A stretch of 11,515 bases of DNA from the UHGV virus genome UHGV-0113878; one strand, 5' to 3'. Below, in pieces: positions 1 to 11,515 of this stretch. Both the position numbers and the translations under genes were made by a program. Position 1 is the stretch's first letter. Each line of letters begins with the position of its first letter. Under the pieces are notes generated by a model. That model was given only the letters and a program-made list of their open reading frames with translations, ran no database searches and was not told the origin of the DNA. The stretch comes from a virus.

Positions 1-50
1 TCACAAAGTCACCTGTCACTCTTTCTGGCTGCCAGATAAGGATTGAGTAA
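1..50 (+). CDS. 3' end of an upstream late gene (partial; by position possibly the gp10-like tail hub/head completion gene)
   Basis: The frame ending at TAA 48-50 is open from the window edge (codons 3-5 onward, reading ...[15 protein letters not shown]). The stop overlaps the ATG of the next gene (TAATG), the same coupling used elsewhere in this operon. The product is inferred only from P22 gene order. Confidence 0.3.
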
Positions 51-1003
51 TGGCTGATTCGAATCTCAATGAGCCAGTAATCATCCAGGCTACGCGGCTC
101 GATACATCAGTCCTTCCACGCAATATCTTCTCGCAGTCGTATCTGCTTTACGTTATTGCACAGGGTGCTGATGTTGGTAACGTGGCTAACAAGGCTAACG
201 AAGCAGGGAAGGGGGCTTATGATGCACAGGTGAAGAATGATGAGCAGGATGCCACCCTTGCAGACCATGAATCCAGAATTGCTGCTGCTGAAGCAACTCT
301 CGTCAATCATGAACATAGAATCGCAACAGCGGAAAGCACTCTTGCAGATCATGAAACAAGGATTATGGCTGCCGAAACAGAGCTGGCTGATCACGAGACG
401 CGAATTGCTGCCAATGAATCTGAGTTAGCAGACCATGATGCGCGCATAACTCAGAATACAACCGATATCGACGCACTTGATACCAGGCTCGCAGCGGCAG
501 AGGGAAGTATTTCGACGCTACAAAGCACAGTTGGTGATCACTCAACAAGAATATCTGCGCTTGAGTATGCCACCACGCGCAAGAAATCAGAGGTTGTTTA
601 CTCAGGAGTATCTGTAACCATCCCGACAGCGCCGACCAACCTTGTTAGCCTGCTGAAAACGCTCACGCCGTCATCCGGAACGTTGGCACCATTCTTCGAC
701 ACCGTTAACAACAAGATTGTTGTGTTCAACGAGAACAAAACCTTGTTCTTCAAGCTGTCGATTGTCGGGACGTGGCCCAGCGGAACCGCCAACAGGTCAA
801 TGCAGCTAACATTCTCCGGTTCTGTTCCTGACACACTGGTCAGCAGTCGTAATGCGGCGACAACAACCGACAACATCCTGTTAGCTACGTTCTTCAGTGT
901 GGATAAAGACGGCTTTCTTGCCACAAATGGCAGTACGTTAACCATTCAGTCGAATGGTGCGGCGTTTACTGCCACAACCATCAAGATAATCGCGGAGCAG
1001 TAA
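50..1003 (+). CDS. Tail needle protein (P22 gp26-like) with coiled-coil shaft and C-terminal knob domain
   Basis: The N-terminus [43 protein letters not shown]...[12 protein letters not shown] closely matches the P22 gp26 tail-needle N-terminus as I recall it. It is followed by a heptad-type repeat region (aa 69-152) and a ~160-aa beta-rich C-terminal extension, as in Sf6/HK620-type knobbed needles. SD-like AAGGA sits about 6 nt upstream of the ATG. Confidence 0.85.
254..505 (+). repeat. Six tandem 42-nt (14-codon) coding repeats inside the tail needle gene
   Basis: Translated units are [14 protein letters not shown] / [14 protein letters not shown] / [14 protein letters not shown] / [14 protein letters not shown] / [14 protein letters not shown] / [14 protein letters not shown]. 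They are in frame and diverged at the nucleotide level, with an [AV][DN]HExRI core. Confidence 0.7.
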
Positions 1004-1458
1004 TGATTCAGTTCAAACCAACGCGAAACATCGACCTGATCGAAGCAGTAGGAAATCACCCTGACATTATCGCCGGGAGCAACAACGGTGATGGATACGA
1101 CTACAAACCTGATTGCCGTTACTTTGAGGTGAACGTGCACGGGCAGTTCGGCGGCATTGTTTACTATCAGGAGATTCAGCCGCTGACATTCAATTGCCAC
1201 GCCATGTACCTGCCAGAGATTCGCGGCTTCAGCAAGGAAATCGGGCTGGCGTTCTGGCGATACATTCTGACTAACACCACTGTTCAGTGTGTCACATCGT
1301 TCGCTGCGCGCAAATTCCGCCACGGGCAGATGTACTGCGCAATGATTGGCCTTAATCGTGTAGGAACCATCAAGAAATACTTCAAAGGCGTGGATGACGT
1401 GACATTTTACAGTGCTACACGCGAAGAACTAATCGAATTCCTGAATCACGGGAGATAG
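1003..1458 (+). CDS. Phage protein at the gp14 position (between tail needle and ejection proteins); function not assignable from sequence
   Basis: A 151-aa ORF whose start overlaps the needle stop (TAATG). It keeps the gene order 26-14-7-20-16 of P22-like phages. No motif is recognisable; the protein is Cys/aromatic-rich. Confidence 0.6.
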   Translation: MIQFKPTRNIDLIEAVGNHPDIIAGSNNGDGYDYKPDCRYFEVNVHGQFGGIVYYQEIQPLTFNCHAMYLPEIRGFSKEIGLAFWRYILTNTTVQCVTSFAARKFRHGQMYCAMIGLNRVGTIKKYFKGVDDVTFYSATREELIEFLNHGR

Positions 1459-1460
1459 CC

Positions 1461-2153
1461 ATGTTATATGCATTTAAGCTGGGCAGAAAACTGCGCGGCG
1501 AGGAGCCTTATTGCCCTGAAAAAGGCGGGAAAGGTGGCAGTTCTGATAAAAGCGCAAAGTATGCATCAGAAGCTCAGAAGTATGCCGCAGACCTGCAAAA
1601 TCAGCAGTGGCAGACGATCATGAAAAACCTTGCTCCGTTCACGCCTCTTGCGGAGCAGTATGTTAACCAGCTTCAGAACCTTTCCAGTTTAGAAGGTCAG
1701 GGGCAGGCACTTAATCAGTATTACAACTCTCAGCAGTATAAAGACCTTGCAGGTCAGGCTCGTTACCAGAGTCTTGCTGCTGCGGAGGCTACGGGAGGAC
1801 TTGGTTCGACAGCCACAAGCAATCAACTGGCTACGATCGCGCCGACTCTCGGTCAGTCTTGGTTATCAAACCAGATGAGCAATTACAACAATCTGGCAAA
1901 CGTTGGGCTTGGTGCGCTGCAAGGTCAGGCAAACGCCGGGCAGACGTACGCCAACAACATGAGCAGCATTGCACAGCAAAGCGCAGCTCTTGCCGCTGCT
2001 AATGCCAACAAACCATCAAGTCTTCAGACAGCAATTAGTGGCGGAACGTCTGGTGCGATTGCCGGTGCAGGTCTTGCCAGCCTTTTGGGAACATCAACAC
2101 CTTGGGGCGCTGGCATTGGTGCTGGTATCGGATTGCTTGGCTCGTTGTTTTAA
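1461..2153 (+). CDS. Ejection (DNA-transfer / internal virion) protein, gp7-position
   Basis: 230 aa, close to the ~229 aa of P22 gp7, and in the expected position. It is Gln/Ala/Gly/Ser-rich and ends in a glycine-zipper-like hydrophobic segment (GAIAGAGLASLLG...GAGIGAGIGLLGSLF). Confidence 0.75.
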   Translation: MLYAFKLGRKLRGEEPYCPEKGGKGGSSDKSAKYASEAQKYAADLQNQQWQTIMKNLAPFTPLAEQYVNQLQNLSSLEGQGQALNQYYNSQQYKDLAGQARYQSLAAAEATGGLGSTATSNQLATIAPTLGQSWLSNQMSNYNNLANVGLGALQGQANAGQTYANNMSSIAQQSAALAAANANKPSSLQTAISGGTSGAIAGAGLASLLGTSTPWGAGIGAGIGLLGSLF

Positions 2154-2162
2154 GGGGTAATC

Positions 2163-3494
2163 ATGGCTACTTGGCAAGGATCAAATGGCGGATTGTTGGC
2201 TGGTATCGGCGGCGTCAACTCAAACGCTCCGAGCGTAAATGACATCGGCAATACGCTTCAGCTTATCAGGCAGAACAATGATATTGAGCGTTCAGGTGCT
2301 AACAATGTTGGGCTGACTGCTTTGCAAGGTCTTTCAGGTATTGCGGGTGTTTTTCAGCAGGAAAAGCAGGCTCAGCGGCAGAAAGAATTTCAGCAGGCGT
2401 ACGCTAATGCTTATGCGTCTGGTGATCGCGGTGCTTTGCGTCAGTTGGCTACTCAATATCCAGACCAGATTGAATCCGTTCGTAAAGGCATGGGATTCAT
2501 TGATGAAGAGCAGCGTAATTCTATCGGCACCTTAGCGGCTGGCGCACGCCTTGCGTCATCGTCTCCAGAAGCAATGCAATCATGGCTGCAAAACAACGCC
2601 GGTGAGTTAGCTCGTGTTGGCGTTAATCCTCATGACGTCGCTCAGATGTACCAACAGAACCCGCGGCAGTTCGGCGAATTTGTCGATCACCTGGGGATGA
2701 ACAGTCTCGGGCCAGAAAAATACTTTGACCTACAGGATAAAATGCAGGGTCGCCAGGTGACCATGCGCGGTCAGGATCTGGATTCGCAAACCGCCGCCCG
2801 GAATCAGGCAATCACAATGCGTGGGCAAGATATCCAGGCAAATTTAGGTCAGCAGCGCATTAATCTGGACGCAGAAACAAACCGCATTAACAACGAAAAT
2901 AAGCACCTTGACCGGATGCTATCAGCAGAAACTAACGACCTGAAGCGCCAGGAAATACAGAGCCGCATAGCAGCCAACAACCAGAAGTTGCAGCAGAAGC
3001 AGCAAGAGCTAAATGATGGCTACAAAGACGGCATCAACACTCTCACAACCAGCATGTTCACTCTGAACGATATCGTTAATTCTCCTGCACTTAAGAGCAT
3101 TACAGGCTTGCGTGGAGCAATCCCCAACGTTCCAGGCTCACAAGCTGCAGACACTCAGGCGCGACTTGATACCTTTAAATCCCAAGCATACCTGACAGCG
3201 GTTCAGGCCATGCGAGGCATGGGCGCACTTTCTGATGCCGAGGGCAAAAAGCTCGACCAGGCTGTTGGTTCGCTGCAGAACTCACAGAGCGAGGAGTCCT
3301 TTCGTCGCAACGCTGGCGTCATCCTGAACACGCTCAACCAGAAGCGTAATGAGGCGGTTGGTAAGTACGTTCAGCAAAACGGTATCAAGCGAGTGGAAGC
3401 GCCTCAGGCTTCTATAGATTACCTGAAGCAGCACCCCGAGCTGTCAATCGACTTCATTAATCGCTACGGATATCTTCCATCTTTGGGGCAGTAA
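2163..3494 (+). CDS. Ejection (DNA-transfer / internal virion) protein, gp20-position
   Basis: A 443-aa ORF with a good SD (AAGGGG) upstream. It is Gln/Asn-rich with an internal repeat ([VI]TMRGQD[LI]) and predicted coiled-coil character. Assignment is by size and synteny. Confidence 0.7.
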   Translation: MATWQGSNGGLLAGIGGVNSNAPSVNDIGNTLQLIRQNNDIERSGANNVGLTALQGLSGIAGVFQQEKQAQRQKEFQQAYANAYASGDRGALRQLATQYPDQIESVRKGMGFIDEEQRNSIGTLAAGARLASSSPEAMQSWLQNNAGELARVGVNPHDVAQMYQQNPRQFGEFVDHLGMNSLGPEKYFDLQDKMQGRQVTMRGQDLDSQTAARNQAITMRGQDIQANLGQQRINLDAETNRINNENKHLDRMLSAETNDLKRQEIQSRIAANNQKLQQKQQELNDGYKDGINTLTTSMFTLNDIVNSPALKSITGLRGAIPNVPGSQAADTQARLDTFKSQAYLTAVQAMRGMGALSDAEGKKLDQAVGSLQNSQSEESFRRNAGVILNTLNQKRNEAVGKYVQQNGIKRVEAPQASIDYLKQHPELSIDFINRYGYLPSLGQ

Positions 3495-5888
3495 ATGGCT
3501 AATTACCGTGATTTGTTAGAGCAGGCTGGCGCACGTTACGGTGTGCCAGAAGGGTTGATGACTGCACTGGGTGCCAAGGAGTCTTCTTACAACCCTGCCG
3601 CAGTAAGCTCCGCCGGGGCTGTAGGATTGACTCAGGTCATGCCTGGGACATGGCGTGATATGGGTTATACCGATGAGCAAATGCAAAACCCCGAATATCA
3701 GGCTGACGCTGGCGCGCGCTATCTGGCAAAGATGTACCAGCAGTTTGGTAACTGGCGTGACGCTCTTCAGGCTTATCACGACGGTCCCGGCAACGTTATG
3801 AAGGCAAAGCGTGGTGAATATACGCCAGGACCTGAAGGCCGCGGTTACGTTGATGATCGCTTTGCTCAATGGGCTGGTGACCCGGTGACAGACTCAACAG
3901 TCGAACAGCGCGCCACCTCTGCAAAGGTACATCCTCAGCAAGACCCTAACAACCCGTTTGCACAACTGGAAGTACAGTCATCCGAACAAGTATCGGCATC
4001 AGGTGTGCAGTCAGACCCAAATAATCCATTTGCTCAGATTGAGCAGCAGGCAGCCAGTCAGCAGCCACCTCAACCCGTAAGTTCTGTCGCACCGAAACCT
4101 GTTCAGCAGCAAGGCGGAATAATGTCTGACCTTGGTAATGGACTTGCTGAAACCGGGCGCGGCTTACTACAGGCAGGAATCAACGTAGCGAACATACCTG
4201 CTGAACTCACTGATGCTGTAACAAGCGCGGCGGCTTGGGCTGGCGGTAAACTCGGCATTGGCGATGGTACATATCAACCAGCGCCACGAGTAACAACGCA
4301 GGGATTAGAGCAGGACTTTGGCCTTCAGCAAGGCGCGCTGACTCCACAAACGACAGAGGGAAGGGTATTTGCTGAAGCATTGCCTTACCTCACTCCTGCT
4401 GGCGTTGAGAGAGCGGCGGTACAGGCACCAACACTTGCTGGTCGAATTGCTCAGGGGGCAACTCGCCTTCTAGCAGAAAACGCAGTTGGATCACTTGCTG
4501 CAAACAGTATGAAAGATGATGCTGAAGCACTCGCTACCGATTTAGGCGTTGGTGTGCTGGCTGGCGGTGCTATTAACGCTGCCGGACGTGGATTAGGTGC
4601 TGCTTATCGTGGCGTTCGTGGTGCTATTGCGCCAGAAGCGCAGCAGGCTATCAGATTTGCAGAGCGTGAAGGAGTTCCTCTGCACACCACAGACCTGTTA
4701 CAGCCTACTTCCCGCGTCGGGAAAATGGCGCAGACGACAGCGGAAAATATCCCCCTGGCTGGCACAAGCGGAATGAGAGCAACGCAACAGGAAGCGAGAA
4801 GCCAGTTGGTGCAGAGATTTGCTGATAAATTCGGTGAGTATGATCCAGCTGTTGTTATTGACAGCCTTAAAGCGAAAACATCAGGAATTCGTCGTGCTGC
4901 AGGGAACCGTCTTGAGCAGGTTCAGAATGCAATGGCGGGAGTCAATATCCAGCCTGCTCGAGCAATTCAGCAGATTGATACAGAAATATCTAACCTGCAG
5001 AAGCTTGGTAAGGTCGCCGATAACGAGACTATTTCAAAACTTCAGTCCTATCGTGATGAGCTTGTTCGCAATGCTGGTCCTGATGGTCCGGTAAATCTGG
5101 ATTTGAAGCAATTAAGCGATCTGCGCAGCCAGTTCAGAATGGACGTGAAGGGGGAACGACCAGTGTTACCAAACCGGTCCGATGCTGCCATTCAGCGCGT
5201 TTACAAGGCAATGACAGACGATATCAATGGTGCCATTGGTCAGAATCTTGGCAACGATACTCTCCGTAAATATCAGCAGGCCAATGCCGTCTACGCTGAC
5301 GAAGCGGCGAAACTAAAGAATACCAGGCTGAAGAATGTTCTCATGAAAGGCGACCTGACGCCGGAAGTTGTCAACAACATGCTATTCAGCAAGAACAAAT
5401 CGGAAATTAAGACGCTGTATAACTCAGTTGGTCGTGTTGGCAGGGCGCAAATGCGCAATGGCATCATTGGAAAGGCGATGGAGAAATCAGGTGGTTCCCC
5501 TGACCAGTTCCTTCGACAGCTTAACATCCTGCAAAACCAGACTGGCATCACATTTAAAGGTCAGGAAGCCGCTTATCTGAAAGGATTAAAAAACTACCTG
5601 CAATCCACGCAGCAGGCTGCAAAAGCGGCAGTAACAACACCCACAGGGCAGCAAACTATCCCGTTCATTATTGGGTATGGGACGGCAATGAACCCGGCGA
5701 CAACTGGCGCAGCAGTAAGCTACGGACTTCTTGCTCGCGCCTATGAGAGCGAGCCATTCAGAAATGCAATGCTCCGAATGGCAAACACCCCACGCGGATC
5801 AACAGCGTTTGAGAAAGCCATGCAGCAGGCACAAAAGGCAATTAACGCTATGACGCAGGGGGCTAAGTCTGATGCGTTGTCAGAATAG
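3495..5888 (+). CDS. Ejection protein (gp16-position) with N-terminal family-1 lytic transglycosylase (SLT) domain
   Basis: The N-terminal ~110 aa carry the three classic SLT motifs: AKES (catalytic Glu29, nt 3579-3581), GLTQVMPGTW, and AYHDGPGN. A linker with two DPNNPFAQ[LI]E repeats and a long Ala/Gly-rich body follow. The ATG abuts the upstream stop (TAAATG). Confidence 0.85.
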   Translation: MANYRDLLEQAGARYGVPEGLMTALGAKESSYNPAAVSSAGAVGLTQVMPGTWRDMGYTDEQMQNPEYQADAGARYLAKMYQQFGNWRDALQAYHDGPGNVMKAKRGEYTPGPEGRGYVDDRFAQWAGDPVTDSTVEQRATSAKVHPQQDPNNPFAQLEVQSSEQVSASGVQSDPNNPFAQIEQQAASQQPPQPVSSVAPKPVQQQGGIMSDLGNGLAETGRGLLQAGINVANIPAELTDAVTSAAAWAGGKLGIGDGTYQPAPRVTTQGLEQDFGLQQGALTPQTTEGRVFAEALPYLTPAGVERAAVQAPTLAGRIAQGATRLLAENAVGSLAANSMKDDAEALATDLGVGVLAGGAINAAGRGLGAAYRGVRGAIAPEAQQAIRFAEREGVPLHTTDLLQPTSRVGKMAQTTAENIPLAGTSGMRATQQEARSQLVQRFADKFGEYDPAVVIDSLKAKTSGIRRAAGNRLEQVQNAMAGVNIQPARAIQQIDTEISNLQKLGKVADNETISKLQSYRDELVRNAGPDGPVNLDLKQLSDLRSQFRMDVKGERPVLPNRSDAAIQRVYKAMTDDINGAIGQNLGNDTLRKYQQANAVYADEAAKLKNTRLKNVLMKGDLTPEVVNNMLFSKNKSEIKTLYNSVGRVGRAQMRNGIIGKAMEKSGGSPDQFLRQLNILQNQTGITFKGQEAAYLKGLKNYLQSTQQAAKAAVTTPTGQQTIPFIIGYGTAMNPATTGAAVSYGLLARAYESEPFRNAMLRMANTPRGSTAFEKAMQQAQKAINAMTQGAKSDALSE

Positions 5889-6052
5889 CTTCGCAAACAC
5901 CAGGAACGTGCAAAAACCAAATATATAGAGCGCAATATTCAACAGATCTCTTTGCATAGACTCATCTCATAATTAACAAATCATAACTGACATTAGTGCA
6001 ATGCAGGGCAAGTTGCATCTTGTTCAGCATTGCTACGTCTGGAGCAAATTAA

Positions 6053-8452
6053 ATGACAGATATTACAGCCAATGTTGTAGTGAGTATGCCTTCGCAACTC
6101 TTCACTATGGCGCGTTCTTTTAAAGCGGTTGCCAATGGCAAAATTTATATCGGTAAAATTGACACTGACCCGGTAAATCCTGAAAACCAGATTCAGGTTT
6201 ATGTGGAGAACGAAGACGGTTCTCACATTCCTGTTTCTCAACCAATCATCATTAACGCTGCTGGATATCCGGTATATAACGGGCAGATTGCCAAATTCGT
6301 AACTGTTCAAGGCCATTCTATGGCTGTATATGATGCATATGGCACTCAGCAGTTCTATTTCCCTAATGTGCTGAAGTATGACCCGGATCAGCTACGGCAG
6401 CAGTTAGAAGACCCGGATGGTGCTAAAAAATATCCCGAATTGCAGATTGCACGATGGCGTGATGACAAAGATGTTCGCGGTTGGGGGGCTATCAGTGATG
6501 GAATAACTGACGCTACTGAGGCATTCTCTAACGCAGGCTATAGAATGTTTGTTCCTGATGGCGATTTTGCAGTAAATACTCTCGAAGTTGATGTATCTTC
6601 TGTTCAAGGTATTGGGAGGATTGTTGCTGATAATGGATCTCTTATTTCAGTTTCTCGTCTACTTGAAACTGACAAACTTGTGCAGAGAAAAATGATGGAA
6701 CCTTTTTTTGGTTTTCAGGGAGAAACAAACACAGAAATTTATCCTAATGCCAGAAATGCGTTACAGGGGATCGCATATTGCCGTGTTAATGGCATTGAAA
6801 AACTATTTGTCACACAACGGCCTGTTGGGCCAACCTGGTCAGATAAAGAAAGAGTTCGTATTGTTGAGTTTAATCTTTATGATGATGGAAGGGTAGTAAA
6901 CCATGTTGCGTATTCTCCAGAATTAAACCTTGGGCACGGATTTGATCTTTCTGCCATGGTGGAGAATGGTCAAGTATATTTATATACATCAAGTGTAACC
7001 AATTCAGGTGAAGATGGGGAGTCTGCAGGCAAAGGGTTTAGTAAAATAACTTGGCGAGGGGCAGGAACAACTCAGTCTGACGTAAAAAGTTATAATGTAT
7101 GGGGGATTACTGGTAGCGGTCACCCATTTCAAGATTACAATCGTGCAGGAATTGCCATTTCTTCTGACGGTCGTCTTTTAATAATGGTTAATACACCAAA
7201 GAGTGATGCCGCTAAACGAACTGTATTTATATACGATAAAATATCAATTGATAAACTTGAAGATAAAACATTAGCAAACCCCATGTTTGTTTGGGAAATG
7301 AGCGACTCACCTTCTGAAGGCGCTTACTCTGTACAAGGTATTGCGTCTGATGGAAGATATATACATATACTTAAGGGAGGCACTAATGCTTTTGGAAAGC
7401 ATCATATCTTTACATATGATTTAACAGGTAATTTACTAAGAAAATTAGATATCGATGATGCAAGGTCGCAATATGGGCGCGATGGGTTGCTTAACCATCC
7501 AACTCTTGGGAATCCAGCCAGATTCGAGCCGGAAGGTTTAACTATTCGTGGCGAAGAAATAATTATAAGCTGCATAGAAACATGGAGGGCAGGAGCTAAT
7601 ATTGTAAACTGGCGTGGAAGAAGATGGGCTGCATCATCCATTGAGACTTCTGGAATAATTGGTGTCCCTCCATCAAATGGCTCTTATTGGGTAGAAACAA
7701 CCAAGGATGCAAATTCTGGAGACTGGAGTCCTGATACAGATTATGGATGGGGAAGTAGCTATTCTCTTGAGAAAAAGACAATTTACTCTATACGACCAGC
7801 GACTGGTAACAACGATGAGCAGAACCTTAATTCTGGCATAACCAATGCTTCAAGTAATGCAGGTGTAGATGCCGGAGAAAGCGGGCGAAATATATCATTT
7901 AGATGGCGCAATGCTTTTAATATTGTTGCATTTAGCGAACGTCTTGGTGAGTACTTCAAAGCTATTATGTATGATAATAGCTCAAGATTAAGAATATACG
8001 ATCAGCAAAACGGTAGTGATAACACTGTTTATGGCTCAATCCAGGCACTATTTACGTCATCATTTAAGGGATTGATTTTAAGGGGTAGGGGGGTATCAGC
8101 ATCAAATAGTTCCTATATTAGGTTACATTCATCTGATGATCCAAACTACCCAAATTCGATCATTGAAGGAACAAGAACAGATGGAAGTTTTTCCAGGGAA
8201 ACAGATTCAAACGGAACCACTACATTTGCATCGGACTCAGAGCACGAACCGTTGCGTATCAGAAGGGCTTCAGATGGTTTGTTGTTTGCATACGAGAAAG
8301 TAAGAGGTACAACTCTCTTTGGAATTTATAGAGGCTCCGGTTCACCTGAGGGTGTTGTGACCGCACCTCAGGGGTCAATGTACATTGATTATAATGGTGA
8401 TTGGTATCAAAAGAAAACAGGAACAGGAAATACAGGATGGGTGTTAAAATAG
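6053..8452 (+). CDS. Tailspike protein: P22/Sf6/HK620-type head-binding N-terminal domain fused to a divergent receptor-binding (probable glycan-depolymerase) region
   Basis: The N-terminal ~113 aa ([50 protein letters not shown]...VLKYDPDQ) match the conserved head-binding domain of P22 gp9 and the HK620/Sf6 tailspikes as I recall them. The remaining ~690 aa are unrelated to the P22 beta-helix. GGAG sits 8 nt upstream of the ATG. The gene is markedly more AT-rich than upstream genes. Confidence 0.9.
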
Positions 8453-8532
8453 ACTATTCTATTTTAATTTTTCCCATTAATTAATGATGGGAATCCCAAA
8501 AATTGATAATACATCATCTATTTATAACTCAG

Positions 8533-8557
8533 CCACCTCATAGTGAGGTGGTCTTTT
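8533..8557 (+). terminator. Putative rho-independent terminator after the tailspike gene
   Basis: An 8-bp perfect stem CCACCTCA/TGAGGTGG with a 3-nt loop is followed by TCTTTT. A second, weaker similar hairpin (CCACC-TTG-GGTGG + GCTTTTA) lies at 8576-8595. Confidence 0.5.
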
Positions 8558-8634
8558 ACTGTTATCCCTAAATCACCACCTTGGGTGGGCTTTTACCAAT
8601 ACCAATGACAGTATTTTTGCTGTAAGAAAGTAAC

Positions 8635-8656
8635 AATAAACCATAAATGGTTTATT
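8635..8656. promoter_or_regulatory. Perfect 10-bp inverted repeat (AATAAACCAT-AA-ATGGTTTATT), candidate operator or regulatory site upstream of the lysis cassette
   Basis: The dyad symmetry is read directly from the sequence. It lies ~55 nt upstream of the first lysis-cassette start, in an AT-rich intergenic region. Function is inferred. Confidence 0.35.
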
Positions 8657-8701
8657 ATGCTTTGTGACTTACCATTTAGGAGGTTGTAATGCATATAAAC
8701 G

Positions 8702-9112
8702 GTGGAAAACATGTCAGCCCAACTAACCAGTGAAACTTTAAATCAGTGGCTTAGCATGAGTTCTCTGGCGGCGGTGATAGCAGGAGTTCCTCCTGAGGTT
8801 GCTTTGGGGGCTTTGGCTGGAGCGGTAATTTTTGTTACCTCTGCGGTAGAGTATCCCATTCGTCGTCGTGTACTCTTGTCGATGCTTAGCTTTCTCTGCG
8901 GCCTTCTTTTTTATAAACCAGCAGCATCAATTCTTATCGGCATAGCCAGCCTGATCCCTACTATCACGCAGGACTCTTTTGAAAAAGGGATTGTTTTCTC
9001 TGCTGGTGCATTCGTGTCAGCAATCGTCGCAGTTCGAATTGGCATCTGGCTCTATCACCGTTCCGATAATCCACGCGAGTTAATTCCGGGGAGAAAAGGC
9101 GATGGTAACTAA
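8702..9112 (+). CDS. Small multi-pass membrane protein, first gene of lysis cassette (putative holin/antiholin-like); likely true start at ATG 8711
   Basis: About four hydrophobic helices and a charged C-terminal tail ([18 protein letters not shown]). GTG 8702 has no SD, whereas ATG 8711 has GGTGGA 4 nt upstream. The 3' end overlaps the next gene by 11 nt. Confidence 0.55.
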   Translation: MENMSAQLTSETLNQWLSMSSLAAVIAGVPPEVALGALAGAVIFVTSAVEYPIRRRVLLSMLSFLCGLLFYKPAASILIGIASLIPTITQDSFEKGIVFSAGAFVSAIVAVRIGIWLYHRSDNPRELIPGRKGDGN

Positions 9113-9410
9113 TGAGCTTGTTTTGCTTATCACCAATGCACTTATTTGTACTGGCATAGCAATTCGTGTTGTCACATTCCGGCGTAACGGTTCACAACAT
9201 CGAAGATGGGGTGGCTGGCTTGCTTATTTTCTGATTGTTGCTGCGGCCAGTATTCCAGTTCGTGCTGTCTATGCAATCTGGCTACGCACGCCAATGGCTG
9301 TGGATTTATCTGAGGTCATTATCAACGCTGTCATGCTTGCTGCGGTTCTTAAAACTCGCGGTAACGTTGTTCAGATTTTCAAAATAACGAGGTCTAAACA
9401 TGGAGATTAA
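9102..9410 (+). CDS. Putative class-I-like holin (3 TM, N-out/C-in predicted)
   Basis: 102 aa with three hydrophobic segments, a positively charged TM1-TM2 loop (RRNGSQHRR) and a charged C-terminus ([19 protein letters not shown]). It lies immediately upstream of, and overlapping, the endolysin gene. Confidence 0.6.
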
Positions 9411-10029
9411 ACAATTCCAACGAGCTGCTGGTATTAGCGAGGTGCTGGCCGCACGCTGGTTCTCGCATATAACTTCTGCGATGAAAGAGTTTGATATCAG
9501 CAAACCAGAAGATCAGGCAATGTTTATTGCTCAGGTCGGGCATGAGTCTGGAGGCTTCACCCGGTTGCAGGAAAATTTCAACTACAGCGTCAGCGGACTG
9601 GCGAGCTTTGTCAGGACTGGACGCCTCACCCAGGGACAGGCTAATGCACTGGGGCGCCGTGCTGGTGAACCACCATTGCCACTTGAGCGCCAGCGCGCGA
9701 TCGCAAATCTGGTTTACAGCAAACGCATGGGTAACAATGCTCCCGGCGATGGCTGGAATTACCGTGGGCGCGGGCTTATCCAGATTACCGGTTTGAATAA
9801 CTATCGTGACTGCGGAAACGGTCTGAAAGTTGACCTGCTGGAGAATCCTGAACTGCTGGCGCAGGACGAATACGCGGCTCGTAGCGCGGCGTGGTTCTTT
9901 GCCAGCAAAGGATGCATGAAGTATACCGGTGATATTGCACGTGTAACTCTGATTATCAATGGTGGCCGGAACGGCATCGACGACCGGCGCGCGCGGTACG
10001 TCACTGCCAGTAAGGTGCTGGCTATATGA
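9400..10029 (+). CDS. Endolysin, glycoside hydrolase family 19-like (chitinase-class-I-type phage lysozyme)
   Basis: 209 aa with GH19-type motifs: GHESGGF...ENFNY (Glu49 at nt 9544-9546, Glu58) and [15 protein letters not shown]. There is no N-terminal signal or SAR hydrophobic segment. GAGG lies 7 nt upstream of the ATG. Size and motifs resemble the GH19 endolysins of Salmonella phages such as SPN1S, as I recall them. Confidence 0.88.
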
Positions 10030-10508
10030 TCTTAGCATTCGTAAAAGCATATCAGAAACAACTACTTATCGTGGTGATGCTTGCTGCTCTGTTCATCGTC
10101 GGAGTGGTTGCCTGGAATATACACGGCAGTCGCCAGTACGATGCCGGGTATGCGCAGGCGGAAGAAGACCGCAAAGACGAAGAAGACAAAGTTCGTCAGT
10201 ACTACGAACAGGAGAAAGTGACCAATGAACGTGAAGCGCAGCAGAGAATCGACCAGGCGCGCAATGATGCTCTTGATGCTGCCGCTCGCGCTGGCAGGTT
10301 GCAGCAACAACTCTTTGCCATCCGTGAGCAGCTCAGGCAGTATAACGCCATTGTCGGCGCTGGGACGTCAGCCGCAGACACCGGAGTTTTGCTTGCCGAC
10401 GTGCTCAGCAAATCTCTCGAGAGAAACAGACAACTGGCAGAGTATGCTGACCGGGCAGCCGAAGCCGGAAGAGTCTGCGAAAAACAGTATGACACCCTGA
10501 CAAGATAG
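10026..10508 (+). CDS. i-spanin (Rz-like): N-terminal TM anchor plus periplasmic coiled coil
   Basis: The start overlaps the endolysin stop (ATGA). An N-terminal hydrophobic helix ([18 protein letters not shown]) is followed by a charged, Gln/Arg/Glu-rich helical region. A complete lipoprotein ORF is embedded in the +1 frame. Confidence 0.8.
10225..10500 (+). CDS. o-spanin (Rz1-like outer-membrane lipoprotein), fully embedded in the i-spanin gene in the +1 frame
   Basis: Signal peptide with lipobox LALAG|C (Cys26, nt 10300-10302) and a Pro/Ser-rich mature region of ~66 aa. AGGAGA lies ~8 nt upstream of the ATG. The embedded layout matches the lambda Rz/Rz1 paradigm. Confidence 0.75.
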   Translation: MNVKRSRESTRRAMMLLMLPLALAGCSNNSLPSVSSSGSITPLSALGRQPQTPEFCLPTCSANLSRETDNWQSMLTGQPKPEESAKNSMTP

Positions 10509-10663
10509 CATGGCATTTTTCATGGTACTGATTTCCGGTGACGGTATATAAAACGGTACGGTGAAAATCATGTTGCAGGAAGTTGTTATCAGTCAATTGG
10601 TTATGGTATCCGTAAATAATTGAGTGGGAATGATTTTGATCCCTGCACTATGAATGAACAAAA

Positions 10664-10690
10664 CCCTCTGTTACTACAGAGGGTTTTTTA
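10664..10690. terminator. Bidirectional rho-independent terminator between convergent transcription units
   Basis: A 7-bp GC-rich stem CCCTCTG/CAGAGGG with loop TTACTA is flanked by an A-tract upstream (ACAAAA) and a T-tract downstream (TTTTTTA). It sits between the end of the + strand lysis cassette and the 3' end of the minus-strand gene. Confidence 0.7.
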
Positions 10691-10727
10691 TCTTCAAGAA
10701 TTATAGGCTTGAAGTTACTTACATCGA

Positions 10728-11267
10728 TTAATTAAACCAGCTGTCCGATTTGTTCTCTTCTGCTTTGCCCACGCTTTTCATCAGATCTCGACCGCCCTCA
10801 GTCATATTCCTGTTTGCGTCAGCTTCAGATTGCACCACATCGGTTTGCGCAGCTTTGTGCTTCAGTTCCTGATCGATAAATTCGTTTTCTCGCTTAACGC
10901 GGGCTTCTTCTTTCGCCAGCGCCAGTTTTTGTTTCTGAATCTCTAAGCTGCGTAGCTCATCTTGATAACTTTGATCGCGTTTTTTGTCCGCAGAGGCTTC
11001 GGCGTCCAGTTTATCCTGACGAGCTTTCTTATTTGCCGCTGCCGTTGTCGCTCTTTTGTTAGCGGCGGCCTGGGCGTTTGCGCGACGTTGCTTCTCTTGC
11101 TGGATTTCCCTGTTGCGCTCCGCGACCCATTCGTCATGCTGCCTTTGCTCTTCATTTTTACCTTGCTGTTCCGCTTCTGCGACAGCAGAGAGTTGATCCT
11201 GCAATGATGAGGCGATAGCCGGATAGCTTAAGGAAGCTAAGATGGCGCAAAGAAAAACTTTCTTCAT
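10728..11267 (-). CDS. Secreted/periplasmic highly charged coiled-coil protein of unknown function
   Basis: 179 aa with an N-terminal signal peptide (MKKVFLCAILASLSYPAIA|SS) followed by a Lys/Glu/Gln/Ala-rich predicted helical region. The SD (AGGAG) is correctly spaced. It is convergent with the phage genes. Confidence 0.7.
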   Translation of the reverse strand: MKKVFLCAILASLSYPAIASSLQDQLSAVAEAEQQGKNEEQRQHDEWVAERNREIQQEKQRRANAQAAANKRATTAAANKKARQDKLDAEASADKKRDQSYQDELRSLEIQKQKLALAKEEARVKRENEFIDQELKHKAAQTDVVQSEADANRNMTEGGRDLMKSVGKAEENKSDSWFN

Positions 11268-11282
11268 GACTCCTCCTGATTA

Positions 11283-11515
11283 TTAGCTCTTTTCAGGACA
11301 TTTGGTATTTGGCTGAATACGCGTTTCGTTATACGTCGTGGTAATAACAACGGCTAAACCTGTCGTAAACTGGCACTCTTTACCCACCTGGGTGGAGGTA
11401 TACACTTTGGTGCCTTCCTTATACGTTAGAGAAACACCTTCCACTAAGGTTTTATCATTCACCATAGAACCCGCTGCCGCGCCAACAGCTCCGCCGCCAA
11501 CTGCACCTAAGCATC
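11283..11515 (-). CDS. Glycine-zipper motif protein (partial; 5' end lies beyond the window), probable envelope protein
   Basis: The minus-strand frame is open to the window edge and translates to ...CLGAVGGGAVGAAAGSMVNDKTLVEGVSLTYKEGTKVYTSTQVGKECQFTTGLAVVITTTYNETRIQPNTKCPEKS*. A G/A-rich glycine-zipper segment precedes a beta-rich C-terminus. The ORF track's Met at 11465 is internal. The stop lies 15 nt upstream of the 179-aa gene start, so the two form an operon. Confidence 0.55.
   Translation of the reverse strand, partial: CLGAVGGGAVGAAAGSMVNDKTLVEGVSLTYKEGTKVYTSTQVGKECQFTTGLAVVITTTYNETRIQPNTKCPEKS

Follow-up and report, generated by a model that had tools for sequence, protein, structure and literature searches.

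A mosaic tailspike combining a P22-type head-binding domain with a predicted five-bladed beta-propeller

Introduction

The body of a tailspike determines the range of strains open to a phage or prophage; such bodies are used in serotype prediction and phage-cocktail design and as diagnostic binders. The tailspikes P22 gp9, Sf6 gp14 and HK620 share their head-binding domain with the protein described here and are likewise encoded after the ejection-protein genes, but their bodies are right-handed parallel beta-helices with endorhamnosidase or endo-N-acetylglucosaminidase activity, whereas the body described here is a predicted propeller.

Propellers are known from receptor proteins of S. aureus phages, which belong to the baseplates of siphoviruses or the collars of picoviruses with Gram-positive hosts and recognise GlcNAc on wall teichoic acid, a polymer absent from E. 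coli. The propeller family to which the present protein belongs comprises hundreds of clusters at 50% identity, which annotation pipelines leave unnamed, and in Klebsiella propeller-type receptor proteins have been reported as poor predictors of capsule type. A known ligand for the present protein, together with an answer to the question of binding versus cleavage, would give the whole family a function.

Here we analyse a tailspike gene in the window, which is the whole stretch of 11,515 nucleotides of the virus genome UHGV-0113878. Close relatives of the protein are found in Gally, a cultivable phage of strain LF82, which is associated with Crohn's disease, and in prophages of ST405, a multidrug-resistant clone.

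Results

Gene organization and module boundaries

The open reading frame at 6053..8452 on the plus strand encodes 799 amino acids. It lies 3' of P22-type needle and ejection-protein genes (gp26, gp14, gp7, gp20, gp16); the upstream reading frames at 50-5888 have Pfam matches to Phage_tail_NK, DUF2824, P22_gp7, Inj_translocase and SLT. The gene can be divided as follows.

6041..6044, plus strand: ribosome-binding site GGAG, 8 nt upstream of the ATG, read directly from the sequence
6053..6391, plus strand: P22/Sf6-type head-binding domain, residues 1-113 (PF09008; limit of DNA identity)
6392..6496, plus strand: predicted alpha-helical neck or linker, residues 114-148 (AF2 helices; second exchangeable segment)
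6497..6676, plus strand: short beta-helix-like stub, residues 149-208, with the GAxxDGxTD motif (short AF2 strands)
6677..7825, plus strand: predicted five-bladed beta-propeller, residues 209-591 (20 blade strands at residues 236-526, nt 6758-7630)
7892..8452, plus strand: predicted C-terminal beta-rich domains, residues 614-799, and stop codon (AF2 strands)
8243..8449, plus strand: GSPEG...GNTGW module, the last ~70 residues, which recurs, also in tandem, in other proteins

A preliminary description made from the letters alone had confined the head-binding domain to about the first 113 residues, and the searches agree. Pfam Head_binding (PF09008) matches with 222.5 bits (cut-off 24; E 1.2e-66) over profile positions 1-113 of 113, and in a PDB sequence search the matches to P22 and Sf6 tailspikes, including Sf6 gp14 in the virion structure 7sg7 (E 9e-65), are confined to residues 1-118. 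By a count made by eye on the printed alignment, residues 1-102 are ~95% identical to Sf6 gp14. Megablast identity to Sf6, IME10, Sf101, Dewey, Huey, APC_JM3.2 and N7 stops at nt 6391, which is the first of two module breakpoints. The second is at about nt 6497: DNA shared with vB_EcoP-720R6 reaches nt 6501, and that shared with E. coli A0 34/86 starts at nt 6497. The intervening neck is 74-87% identical to the matching stretch of CUS-3-like endosialidase tailspikes and others. These sequence comparisons support a mosaic gene with its junction at residue 113.

The receptor body also occurs on an epsilon15/phiV10-type N-terminus in A0 34/86, and relatives at 37-62% identity sit on T7-type, tail-collar and other adaptors, which bears out the earlier suggestion of a horizontally moving module. 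No characterised tailspike of known specificity aligned with residues 115-799 at high identity along their full length. The single-protein PDB sequence search gave matches only to the head-binding domain and neck, and Pfam at E 10 returned none for the stub and the C-terminal parts; the stub has weak matches to tail-spike PHROGs, and the homologues P0007 and P0009 match PF12708 at the place judged equivalent to it. The C-terminal domains are modelled with pLDDT mostly 75-93, with a weaker stretch (54-60) at residues ~724-754. Homologues end either in the GSPEG...GNTGW module or in a Peptidase_S74 chaperone (PF13884); the latter, found by Pfam in many of them (P0004, P0008, P0011, P0012 and P0014-P0017), is absent from the 799-residue protein.

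Base composition also sets the gene apart, as the preliminary description had estimated. The body (6392-8452) has a GC content of 40.7% and a GC3 of 27.9%, against 49.5-52.0% and 45.6-61.8% in the upstream genes, so that the gene is more AT-rich than the ejection genes and the late operon is not uniform; in 400-nt windows the ranges for the body (0.37-0.44) and the upstream region (0.465-0.555) do not overlap. Since the head-binding segment is also low in GC (42.5%), the drop begins upstream of the domain junction.

Predicted propeller fold and family

The AF2 monomer model (pLDDT 83.4, pTM 0.73) contains 20 blade strands, arranged in five groups of four over residues 236-526 and mostly at pLDDT 80-94. 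All top structural matches of the model are propellers, and receptor proteins of the phi11 Gp45 / P68 gp17 type are the closest solved structures. The repetitive beta architecture anticipated from the letters therefore holds with respect to the repeats, but its form is corrected to a predicted five-bladed propeller of the phi11/P68/GA-1 lineage, not a helix. The three recurring motifs on which that expectation drew are all present (AISDGITD at 146, ISSDGRLL at 369 and IASDGRYIH at 430). Those at 369 and 430, in blades 3 and 4, are the only matches to the pattern [ILVAM][ASTC][ST]DG (mean of 0.05 in shuffled sequences), whereas the one at 146 falls outside the propeller repeat, in the unrelated N-terminal GAxxDGxTD stub.

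Judged by sequence, the propeller is a clear relative of the neck appendage gp12 of Bacillus phage GA-1. This protein scores 354 bits against the family profile, is 26% identical to the body over 66% of its length (tblastn) and matches the model structurally with a Foldseek E of 6e-45 and a TM of 0.63. The GA-1 gp12-like family, with 761 cluster representatives at E<=1e-3 and 112 at E<=1e-30, is marked by similarity across the whole propeller, by QG...GHG...QG...ExEG motifs and by matches to PHROG 16355 and PHROG 19921. A profile search of genome contigs with a second family alignment matched 71 stretches, of which 0 were confirmed.

The propeller is also of the same lineage as the 'platform' of phi11 Gp45, 80alpha RBP and P68 gp17. 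A local hhalign comparison of the family with phi11 Gp45 is collinear but weak (E 0.0012, probability 19%), the global comparison gave no alignment, and the family-profile search of the whole PDB missed phi11 Gp45 (5efv), its sole match being the S74 chaperone of homologues; the phi11 link thus rests on correspondence of fold and motifs. The match to Pfam PF21311 is sub-threshold: against a gathering score of 23.7 bits, the whole protein reaches 16.5 and a fragment 19.7.

Conserved residues and a candidate pocket

Five polar residues, Q238, H295, Q428, E492 and E494, are 96-100% conserved among the 122 family members (22-68% identity) in our conservation table.

6764..6766, plus strand: Q238, innermost strand of blade 1; 96% in 122 members; aligns with phi11 Gp45 M164-Q165
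6935..6937, plus strand: H295 (LGHG), just N-terminal of blade 2; 98% conserved; aligns with phi11 GGH209GT211
7334..7336, plus strand: Q428 (VQGIASDG), innermost strand of blade 4; 98% conserved; aligns with phi11 M329-Q330
7526..7534, plus strand: E492-P-E494 (RFEPEG), innermost strand of blade 5; 100% and 98% conserved

Residues E492 and E494 align with E385-A-E387-G of phi11 and E410-A-E412-G of GA-1. In the phi11 structure, M164, Q165, T211, M329 and Q330 line a modelled GlcNAc cavity, although GlcNAc was never observed bound in the crystal (PMC4901313). The residues of this cavity are matched by conserved positions in the present protein, in a pairwise alignment that is itself weak. Strand positions in the model, taken with the phi11 alignment, suggest that the conserved residues would lie together in one central pocket.

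The explanation that we favour, and consider likely, is a modular virion tailspike in which sugar binding by the propeller pocket sets adsorption. Residues 1-113 would dock the tailspike on a P22-type tail, with the neck (114-148) and stub (149-208) leading into the propeller (~209-591) and then into the C-terminal beta domains (614-799), which probably form the trimer, the role played by the Peptidase_S74 chaperone in many homologues. A homotrimer with three propellers arranged about its axis and a 'tower' behind them characterises the phi11 Gp45 / P68 gp17 type. The stem-platform-tower plan has been described for P68 gp17 (PMC6795507). Each subunit of the putative trimer would have one pocket at the propeller centre, lined by Q238, H295, Q428, E492 and E494, that could accommodate a surface-polysaccharide sugar residue; such binding would set adsorption. 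Rather than a single O-unit, the receptor may be a feature that E. coli of serogroups O83, O102 and O11 carry. Particles of Gally, whose tailspike differs from the present one at 14 of 799 residues, lysogenise LF82 that has been cured of Gally (PMC9928086).

Within this explanation, lectin-like binding without cleavage has in our estimate nearly an even chance of being what the pocket does. The propeller could instead be catalytic, as the preliminary description had suggested, with a Q-H-Q-ExE site, perhaps aided by a metal ion, that cleaves or modifies the receptor glycan (glycosidase, lyase, esterase or phosphodiesterase activity), while the short-tailed virion works through a polysaccharide layer in the manner of P22, Sf6, HK620 and CUS-3; we hold this to be a serious reading whose probability is somewhat below one half. 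Near-invariant polar residues, as seen in 122 members from Gram-negative and Gram-positive hosts, usually point to a catalytic or metal site, and the domain occurs in several short-tailed groups (Lederbergvirus, an epsilon15-like prophage, Gamaleyavirus, Kayfunavirus and GA-1). In GA-1 the propeller is part of the appendage whose phi29 counterpart degrades teichoic acid, which also counts for catalysis. To our knowledge every characterised P22-like tailspike is an enzyme, which counts against pure binding. Large surveys place n-bladed propellers among candidate depolymerases (PMC12491483), a further point in favour of an enzyme.

Against catalysis, the family has no demonstrated enzyme activity and PHROG 16355 is labelled 'unknown function'. 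An NCBIfam scan of the whole protein was empty, glycoside-hydrolase matches were absent from Pfam, there was no family-level sequence match to the five-bladed GH43, GH62, GH32 and GH68 families with their catalytic Asp/Glu set, and a GH43-type Asp/Asp/Glu triad was not identified. Moreover, phi11 Gp45 keeps the same residues in a protein whose structure paper contains no words starting with 'hydrolase' or 'enzymatic' (PMC4901313), and for the nearest relatives of solved structure the only described role is binding of GlcNAc-teichoic acid (PMC4901313, PMC6795507). For the propeller body we therefore treat 'depolymerase' as a hypothesis. A role of the pocket other than lectin-like binding or catalysis is improbable.

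Genomic context and origin of the window

The window is a SPAdes-style metagenome contig with 4.7x coverage. Several features in and beyond the tailspike gene bear on its origin.

6557..6603, plus strand: switch zone from ST405 P22-like prophage to A0 34/86 epsilon15-like prophage (mismatch maps)
8532..8552, plus strand: terminator-like hairpin with T-rich tail, 80 nt past the stop codon (consensus scan; such sites are no more numerous here than expected by chance)
8702..10508, plus strand: lysis cassette with two holins, a GH19 endolysin and a DUF2514 spanin, as in epsilon15/TL-2011b-like prophages (Pfam)
10728..11267, minus strand: chromosomal yfgI (DUF5384), marking the prophage end (Pfam and A0 34/86 annotation)

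The lysis cassette is 94% identical to that of TL-2011b, with the gene order of A0 34/86. Matches to part of the window occur in 5421 of 5426 E. coli genomes, probably because of yfgI. Up to nt 6602 the window has 0 mismatches to the ST405 P22-like prophage; A0 34/86 shows 10 mismatches in 6511-6557 and 0 in 6558-7380. The switch from P22-like to epsilon15-like sequence, which falls inside the receptor domain, reflects either genuine recombination or a chimeric assembly.

A chimera would have joined two near-identical copies of the receptor domain from two prophages in one sample, and the exact 799-residue sequence with its neighbourhood would then exist in no single genome. We regard this as a real but less favoured possibility. 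The contig has low coverage and is the sole record of the exact protein, the joint is present in 0 of 5426 complete genomes, four complete genomes hold two copies of the domain, and the closest relative changes from ST405 to A0 34/86 after nt 6602. Natural homologous recombination through the shared 2-kb segment is, however, equally expected, and the contig has been reported from two samples. The conclusions about the protein stand either way, because it differs by only 5-14 residues from real ones.

Host distribution and the receptor

Among O83 genomes, 7 of 35 carry the receptor domain; for O102 the count is at least 20 of 106, and for O11 at least 5 of 66. Together the three serogroups account for 3.8% of the genomes and for at least 32 of the 44 carriers (hypergeometric P 5e-37, with clonality ignored and 12 carriers untyped), an association that is inflated by clonality (ST405). 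Among O83, O102 and O11 lysogens, residues 149-799 differ at 4-10 amino acids, and the near-identical domain is found on two different N-terminal adaptors, with the P22-type and epsilon15-type forms of the protein both present in O83 carriers and likewise in O102 carriers. The O-antigen gene clusters of these serogroups differ: that of O83 is without rml or man genes, that of O102 has rmlBDAC and that of O11 has gmd-fcl-manBC. It is therefore doubtful that the domain is specific for one O-antigen. The earlier proposal that the body sets host-glycan specificity remains plausible, but has to accommodate a near-identical domain in lysogens of three serogroups.

A published survey found that RBP1 of PGN829.1, a member of the family, matches prophage receptor-binding proteins in O11, O83, O86 and O102 strains and is probably not specific for one O-antigen (PMC10408124). 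PGN829.1 RBP1 is 47% identical to the body studied here. Because its type of domain occurs in only two complete genomes (93.7% identity), the O11/O83/O86/O102 list fits the present body better, a point on which the wording of the survey is unreconciled.

A glycan other than the O-antigen that the carrier lineages share, such as a K capsule, the enterobacterial common antigen or an LPS core type, strikes us as a rather unlikely receptor. The same domain does span O83, O102 and O11 despite their differing O-antigen gene clusters, and such a receptor was proposed for PGN829.1 RBP1 and its prophage matches (PMC10408124). The concentration of at least 32 of 44 carriers in three serogroups argues against it, and the presence of both protein forms in O83 and in O102 carriers is more easily reconciled with an O-antigen-linked feature than with a universal glycan.

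Discussion

Of the readings considered, a diverged right-handed beta-helix of the P22/Sf6/HK620 kind beyond sequence detection is by far the least probable: the GAxxDGxTD of stub 149-208 opens many pectate-lyase-like tailspikes and two homologues match PF12708 in the stub region, but AF2 gives five four-stranded blades with high confidence, every top structural match is a propeller, and past the stub there is no beta-helix match in Pfam or the PDB. The preliminary description was thus right in seeing no relation to the P22 beta-helix, and a beta-helix tailspike identity was rejected on domain content, with the ~60-residue stub alone resembling the start of a helix.

The preferred reading remains a modular tailspike whose propeller pocket binds sugar. 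Identification of the ligand would also show whether a single tailspike can serve several O serogroups. A broader proposal, which we offer as speculative and rather unlikely, is that the Q-H-Q-ExE pocket is an unrecognised glycan-processing or glycan-reading module common to the appendages of phi11, P68, GA-1 and Gram-negative podophages, placed here on a P22-type virion that recognises a monosaccharide-scale feature common to the O antigens O11, O83, O86 and O102. On that view one tailspike would serve several serogroups, departing from the rule of one O-unit and one endoglycosidase for P22-like tailspikes.

The closest described proteins are the tailspikes of Gally (prophage of E. coli LF82, OV696608), vB_EcoP-683R2 (ON470594) and the ST405 prophage (WP_087503469), which are the same 799-residue protein with 5-14 amino acid differences (14 of 799 for Gally), a body identity of 98.5-99.3% and, as here, a P22-like late-gene neighbourhood. 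In these three an integrase-side region comes after the gene, with a GDSL esterase and DUF1796 or with a small reading frame, whereas here the lysis cassette does; the exact 799-residue protein is on record from this contig only. They are annotated merely as 'tailspike' or 'head-binding domain-containing protein', and the searchable literature held no description of their fold, receptor or activity.

GA-1 gp12 (Q9FZW3) retains the QG, GH, Q and ExEG motifs seen here, but the phage has a Gram-positive host and the protein ends in a Peptidase_S74 intramolecular chaperone (solved, 3GUD) where the present one has the GSPEG...GNTGW module. The S. aureus receptor proteins phi11 Gp45 (5EFV), 80alpha RBP (6V8I), P68 gp17 (6IAB) and NF5 gp17 (9M7X), associated with PF21311, are only 10-15% identical and have a long coiled-coil stem where the present protein has the P22 head-binding domain; the beta-helix-like stub is an extra of the present protein. 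We know of no functional test of the GA-1 gp12 propeller.

Tailspikes of the CUS-3 type provide a precedent for a propeller body on a P22-type head-binding domain. Theirs is a six-bladed GH58 propeller with known enzyme activity, whereas five blades are predicted here, and they carry PF12217, PF12218, PF12195 and an S74 chaperone, none of which was found in the present protein. An endosialidase identity was rejected on this domain content, the likeness being confined to the neck, which is 74-87% identical over residues 114-~160. Compared with all of these systems, the tailspike adds an example to kinds already known, without founding a new kind of system, and is, apart from the question of its ligand, an expected case of tailspike modularity.

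Gene and mosaic structure

The open reading frame (ORF) at 6053-8452 was confirmed as real and encodes a tailspike of 799 aa. The features around it are as follows.

Upstream, in order: P22-type tail needle with Sf6-type knob, gp14 (DUF2824), gp7, gp20 and SLT-bearing gp16 (Pfam)
5889-6052: gap between the gp16-like gene and the tailspike, 164 bp, 38% GC
8 nt 5' of the tailspike start codon, plus strand: GGAG (from the sequence)
6053-8452, plus strand: tailspike
8532-8552, plus strand: terminator-like hairpin, of a kind whose frequency in the region is not above chance

In Gally, a prophage of E. coli LF82, the gap holds three additional genes, mnt among them. A minus-strand ORF at 5993-6316 overlaps the tailspike start; no family match was found for it, and it is probably spurious.

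The preliminary description judged the tailspike to be more AT-rich than the ejection genes, and base composition bears this out. The receptor-binding body (6392-8452) has 40.7% GC and 27.9% GC3, against 49.5-52.0% GC in the five genes upstream, and in 400-nt windows its range (0.37-0.44) does not overlap the upstream one (0.465-0.555). The head-binding segment is likewise rather low, at 42.5%.

The Pfam Head_binding domain spans exactly residues 1-113 (222.5 bits; cut-off 24), matches to the P22 and Sf6 tailspikes in the PDB are limited to residues 1-118, and residues 1-102 are ~95% identical to Sf6 gp14 in the PDB match. Megablast identity to Sf6, IME10, Sf101, Dewey, Huey, APC_JM3.2 and N7 stops at nt 6391, the end of the codon for residue 113. 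The P22-type domain is thus confined to about the first 113 residues, as had been proposed. A second junction lies at ~6497-6501 (residue ~149); vB_EcoP-720R6 has DNA in common with the window up to nt 6501, and the E. coli A0 34/86 prophage from nt 6497 on. Between the junctions, the neck is 74-87% identical to that of CUS-3-like endosialidase tailspikes, among others. The A0 34/86 protein (858 aa in total) carries the same body on an epsilon15/phiV10-type N-terminus, and relatives at 37-62% identity have T7-type, tail-collar or other N-termini. Given the two junctions and the occurrence of the body on other N-termini, the gene is a mosaic of three parts (head-binding domain, neck and receptor-binding body), the last of which moves from one phage group to another, in agreement with the earlier proposal of a modular tailspike with a horizontally acquired body.

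Neck and stub (residues 113-189, nt 6389-6619) also match, at E 1.6e-13, residues 213-292 of an 843-aa 'tail spike protein' in the PDB (9vvr_A), and the first ~120 body residues share 34-38% identity with the corresponding part of K1F/phi92-type endosialidases and related tail proteins. The neck is a connector common to many tail proteins.

A prophage switch within the body

The window derives from a 15.8-kb metagenome contig. The ST405 P22-like prophage matches positions 1-8451 at 99.8%, the first mismatch lying not before nt 6603, and the end of the A0 34/86 epsilon15-like prophage (also TL-2011b-like) matches 6497-11508 at 98.7%.

6497-11508, past the body: two holins, GH19 endolysin, DUF2514 spanin, then chromosomal yfgI

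The switch from P22-like to epsilon15-like sequence falls at ~6557-6603, inside the shared receptor domain, which is the only sequence the two prophage types have in common. Because the joint is absent from all 5426 complete E. coli genomes, four genomes carry two body copies each, and the contig has 4.7x coverage, the joint reflects either recombination through the receptor domain or an assembly chimera. Conclusions on the tailspike protein are the same in both cases.

Fold and family of the body

The body has no curated family name. An NCBIfam scan of the tailspike gave no match, and PHROG 16355, an exact match, is annotated 'unknown function'. The sole Pfam signal is PF21311 ('phage 5-bladed beta propeller receptor binding platform'), below threshold (16.5-19.7 bits vs 23.7).

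We modeled residues 115-799 with AlphaFold2 from a 17-sequence alignment (mean pLDDT 83.4, pTM 0.73). In the model the neck is helical, the following stub has short strands, residues 236-526 form twenty strands in five groups of four, and the C-terminal domains are beta-rich. The stub contains a GAxxDGxTD motif, of the sort with which pectate-lyase-like spikes typically begin, and PF12708 matches this region in two homologues. Foldseek ranks NF5 gp17, the 80alpha RBP, phi11 Gp45 and the P68 tail fibre at the top in the PDB; in predicted viral structures, the best hit by far is the GA-1 neck appendage protein (E 6e-45, TM 0.63). The preliminary reading of a repetitive beta architecture, with its three quoted motifs now located at residues 146, 369 and 430, was correct in kind but imprecise, the fold being a five-bladed propeller according to AlphaFold2 and Foldseek.

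In sequence, GA-1 gp12 and the body are 26% identical along two thirds of the latter, and the family profile scores GA-1 gp12 at 354 bits. Counted as 50%-identity cluster representatives, the family has 761 members with E<=1e-3, of which 112 reach E<=1e-30. Among the phages represented are PGN829.1 (Gamaleyavirus, 47%), Pollock, several Kayfunavirus phages, one Raoultella phage and one Tetragenococcus phage.

The C-terminus of the relatives at 37-62% identity is a Peptidase_S74 chaperone or a GSPEG...GNTGW module, the latter being present in the tailspike. That homologues bear one or the other suggests that the two are alternative trimerisation devices. The module (residues 731-799, nt 8243-8449) also ends other phage fibre proteins and occurs in tandem in giant proteins, e.g., in five copies in P0213, a 3821-aa protein with additional BclA_C/C1q-like and S74 domains.

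A conserved site and a probable pocket

Across 122 members covering the propeller (22-68% identity to the tailspike, median 33%), Q238, H295, Q428, E492 and E494 are kept in 96-100%, and R269, K327, W334 and T339 in 84-97%. The model places Q238, Q428 and E492/E494 on the predicted innermost strands of blades 1, 4 and 5, respectively, and H295 immediately before blade 2. A profile search and a local hhalign against phi11 Gp45 are weak in statistical terms (E 0.0012, probability 19%), yet they run collinear across 316 columns and pair Q238 with M164-Q165, H295 with G-G-H209-G-T211, Q428 with M329-Q330, and E492/E494 with E385-A-E387-G. In phi11, Gln165, Thr211, Gln330, Met164 and Met329 line a cavity into which GlcNAc was modeled; GlcNAc soaking was unsuccessful (PMC4901313). 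The stem-platform-tower plan is shared by P68 gp17, whose ligand is beta-GlcNAc teichoic acid (PMC6795507). We concluded that a functional pocket is common to the E. coli tailspike and the phi11/P68 receptor proteins, the clustering of its residues in space being inferred from strand positions and the phi11 alignment.

Hosts and neighboring genes

Among 5426 complete E. coli genomes, 44 carry the body, at 98.5-99.1% DNA identity. Serogroups were assigned from the wzx/wzy annotations of the records, which left 12 of the 44 carriers untyped; strain 631 was placed in O102 by identical Gnd, Ugd and WzzB proteins.

Carriers of the body by serogroup
O83: 7 of 35 genomes, including LF82, NRG857C and A0 34/86
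O102: at least 20 of 106 genomes, ST405 clone
O11: at least 5 of 66 genomes

Together these serogroups account for 3.8% of genomes but at least 73% of carriers (hypergeometric P 5e-37, inflated by clonality). The sugar-pathway genes in their three O-antigen clusters are not the same. Between O83 and O102 hosts, the proteins show only 4-10 differences in residues 149-799, with the pocket residues unaffected, and both adaptor forms are present in each of the two host groups. According to a published survey, PGN829.1 RBP1, a family member (47% identical), matches prophage RBPs in O11, O83, O86 and O102 strains; the survey's authors proposed a non-O-antigen receptor (PMC10408124). Gally, which has this tailspike, forms no plaques, yet it lysogenises LF82 cured of Gally (PMC9928086); the tailspike thus works on an O83 strain.

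E. coli EC19, a pig isolate (NZ_CP182182.1), carries two diverged family alleles (871486-873441 and 1634449-1636468; 47% aa identity), the body type studied here on an epsilon15-like adaptor and the PGN829.1-type on a P22-type tailspike. ST405 prophages and phage 683R2 have a 178-aa GDSL/SGNH esterase 3' of the tailspike, on the opposite strand and outside the window.

L001 (E. coli 7/2 locus), 14572-15960: esterase region
L002 (683R2 locus), 6178-7566: esterase region

Strain 7/2 also has a DUF1796 protein after the tailspike, the counterpart of which in 683R2 is annotated 'hypothetical protein'. In P22-like phages this position usually holds O-antigen conversion genes, and the esterase could have a receptor-modifying or superinfection-exclusion function.

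Binding or catalysis

The propeller pocket may bind only. Several points favor this reading: (i) phi11 Gp45 retains the pocket residues, which also align with those of P68-like proteins, and these proteins are described purely as binders (PMC4901313, PMC6795507). (ii) Beyond the fold, Pfam and structure searches found no likeness to any glycoside-hydrolase family. (iii) The host distribution of the tailspike is unusual. (iv) A Klebsiella prophage survey, in which n-bladed propellers made up 18% of candidate depolymerases, called their activity in phages unclear and found that they tracked capsule type poorly (PMC12491483). Alternatively, and about as likely, the pocket may be catalytic, as in the depolymerase hypothesis, given a polar set that is almost invariant in members from hosts with differing envelopes and carriers that are short-tailed phages. 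Also counted for catalysis are that five-bladed propellers are often enzymes and that, to our knowledge, the characterised spikes of short-tailed phages are enzymes. The body may also set the host-glycan specificity, as the preliminary description proposed.

Databases already contain the tailspike (from Gally and 683R2, and in one 262-member cluster). As an experimental target it is reasonable, not exceptional, on account of the link between P22-type and phi11-type proteins, its conserved pocket and its spread over several serogroups. It belongs to known kinds of protein, the modular tailspikes of P22 type and the propeller receptor proteins of phi11 type.
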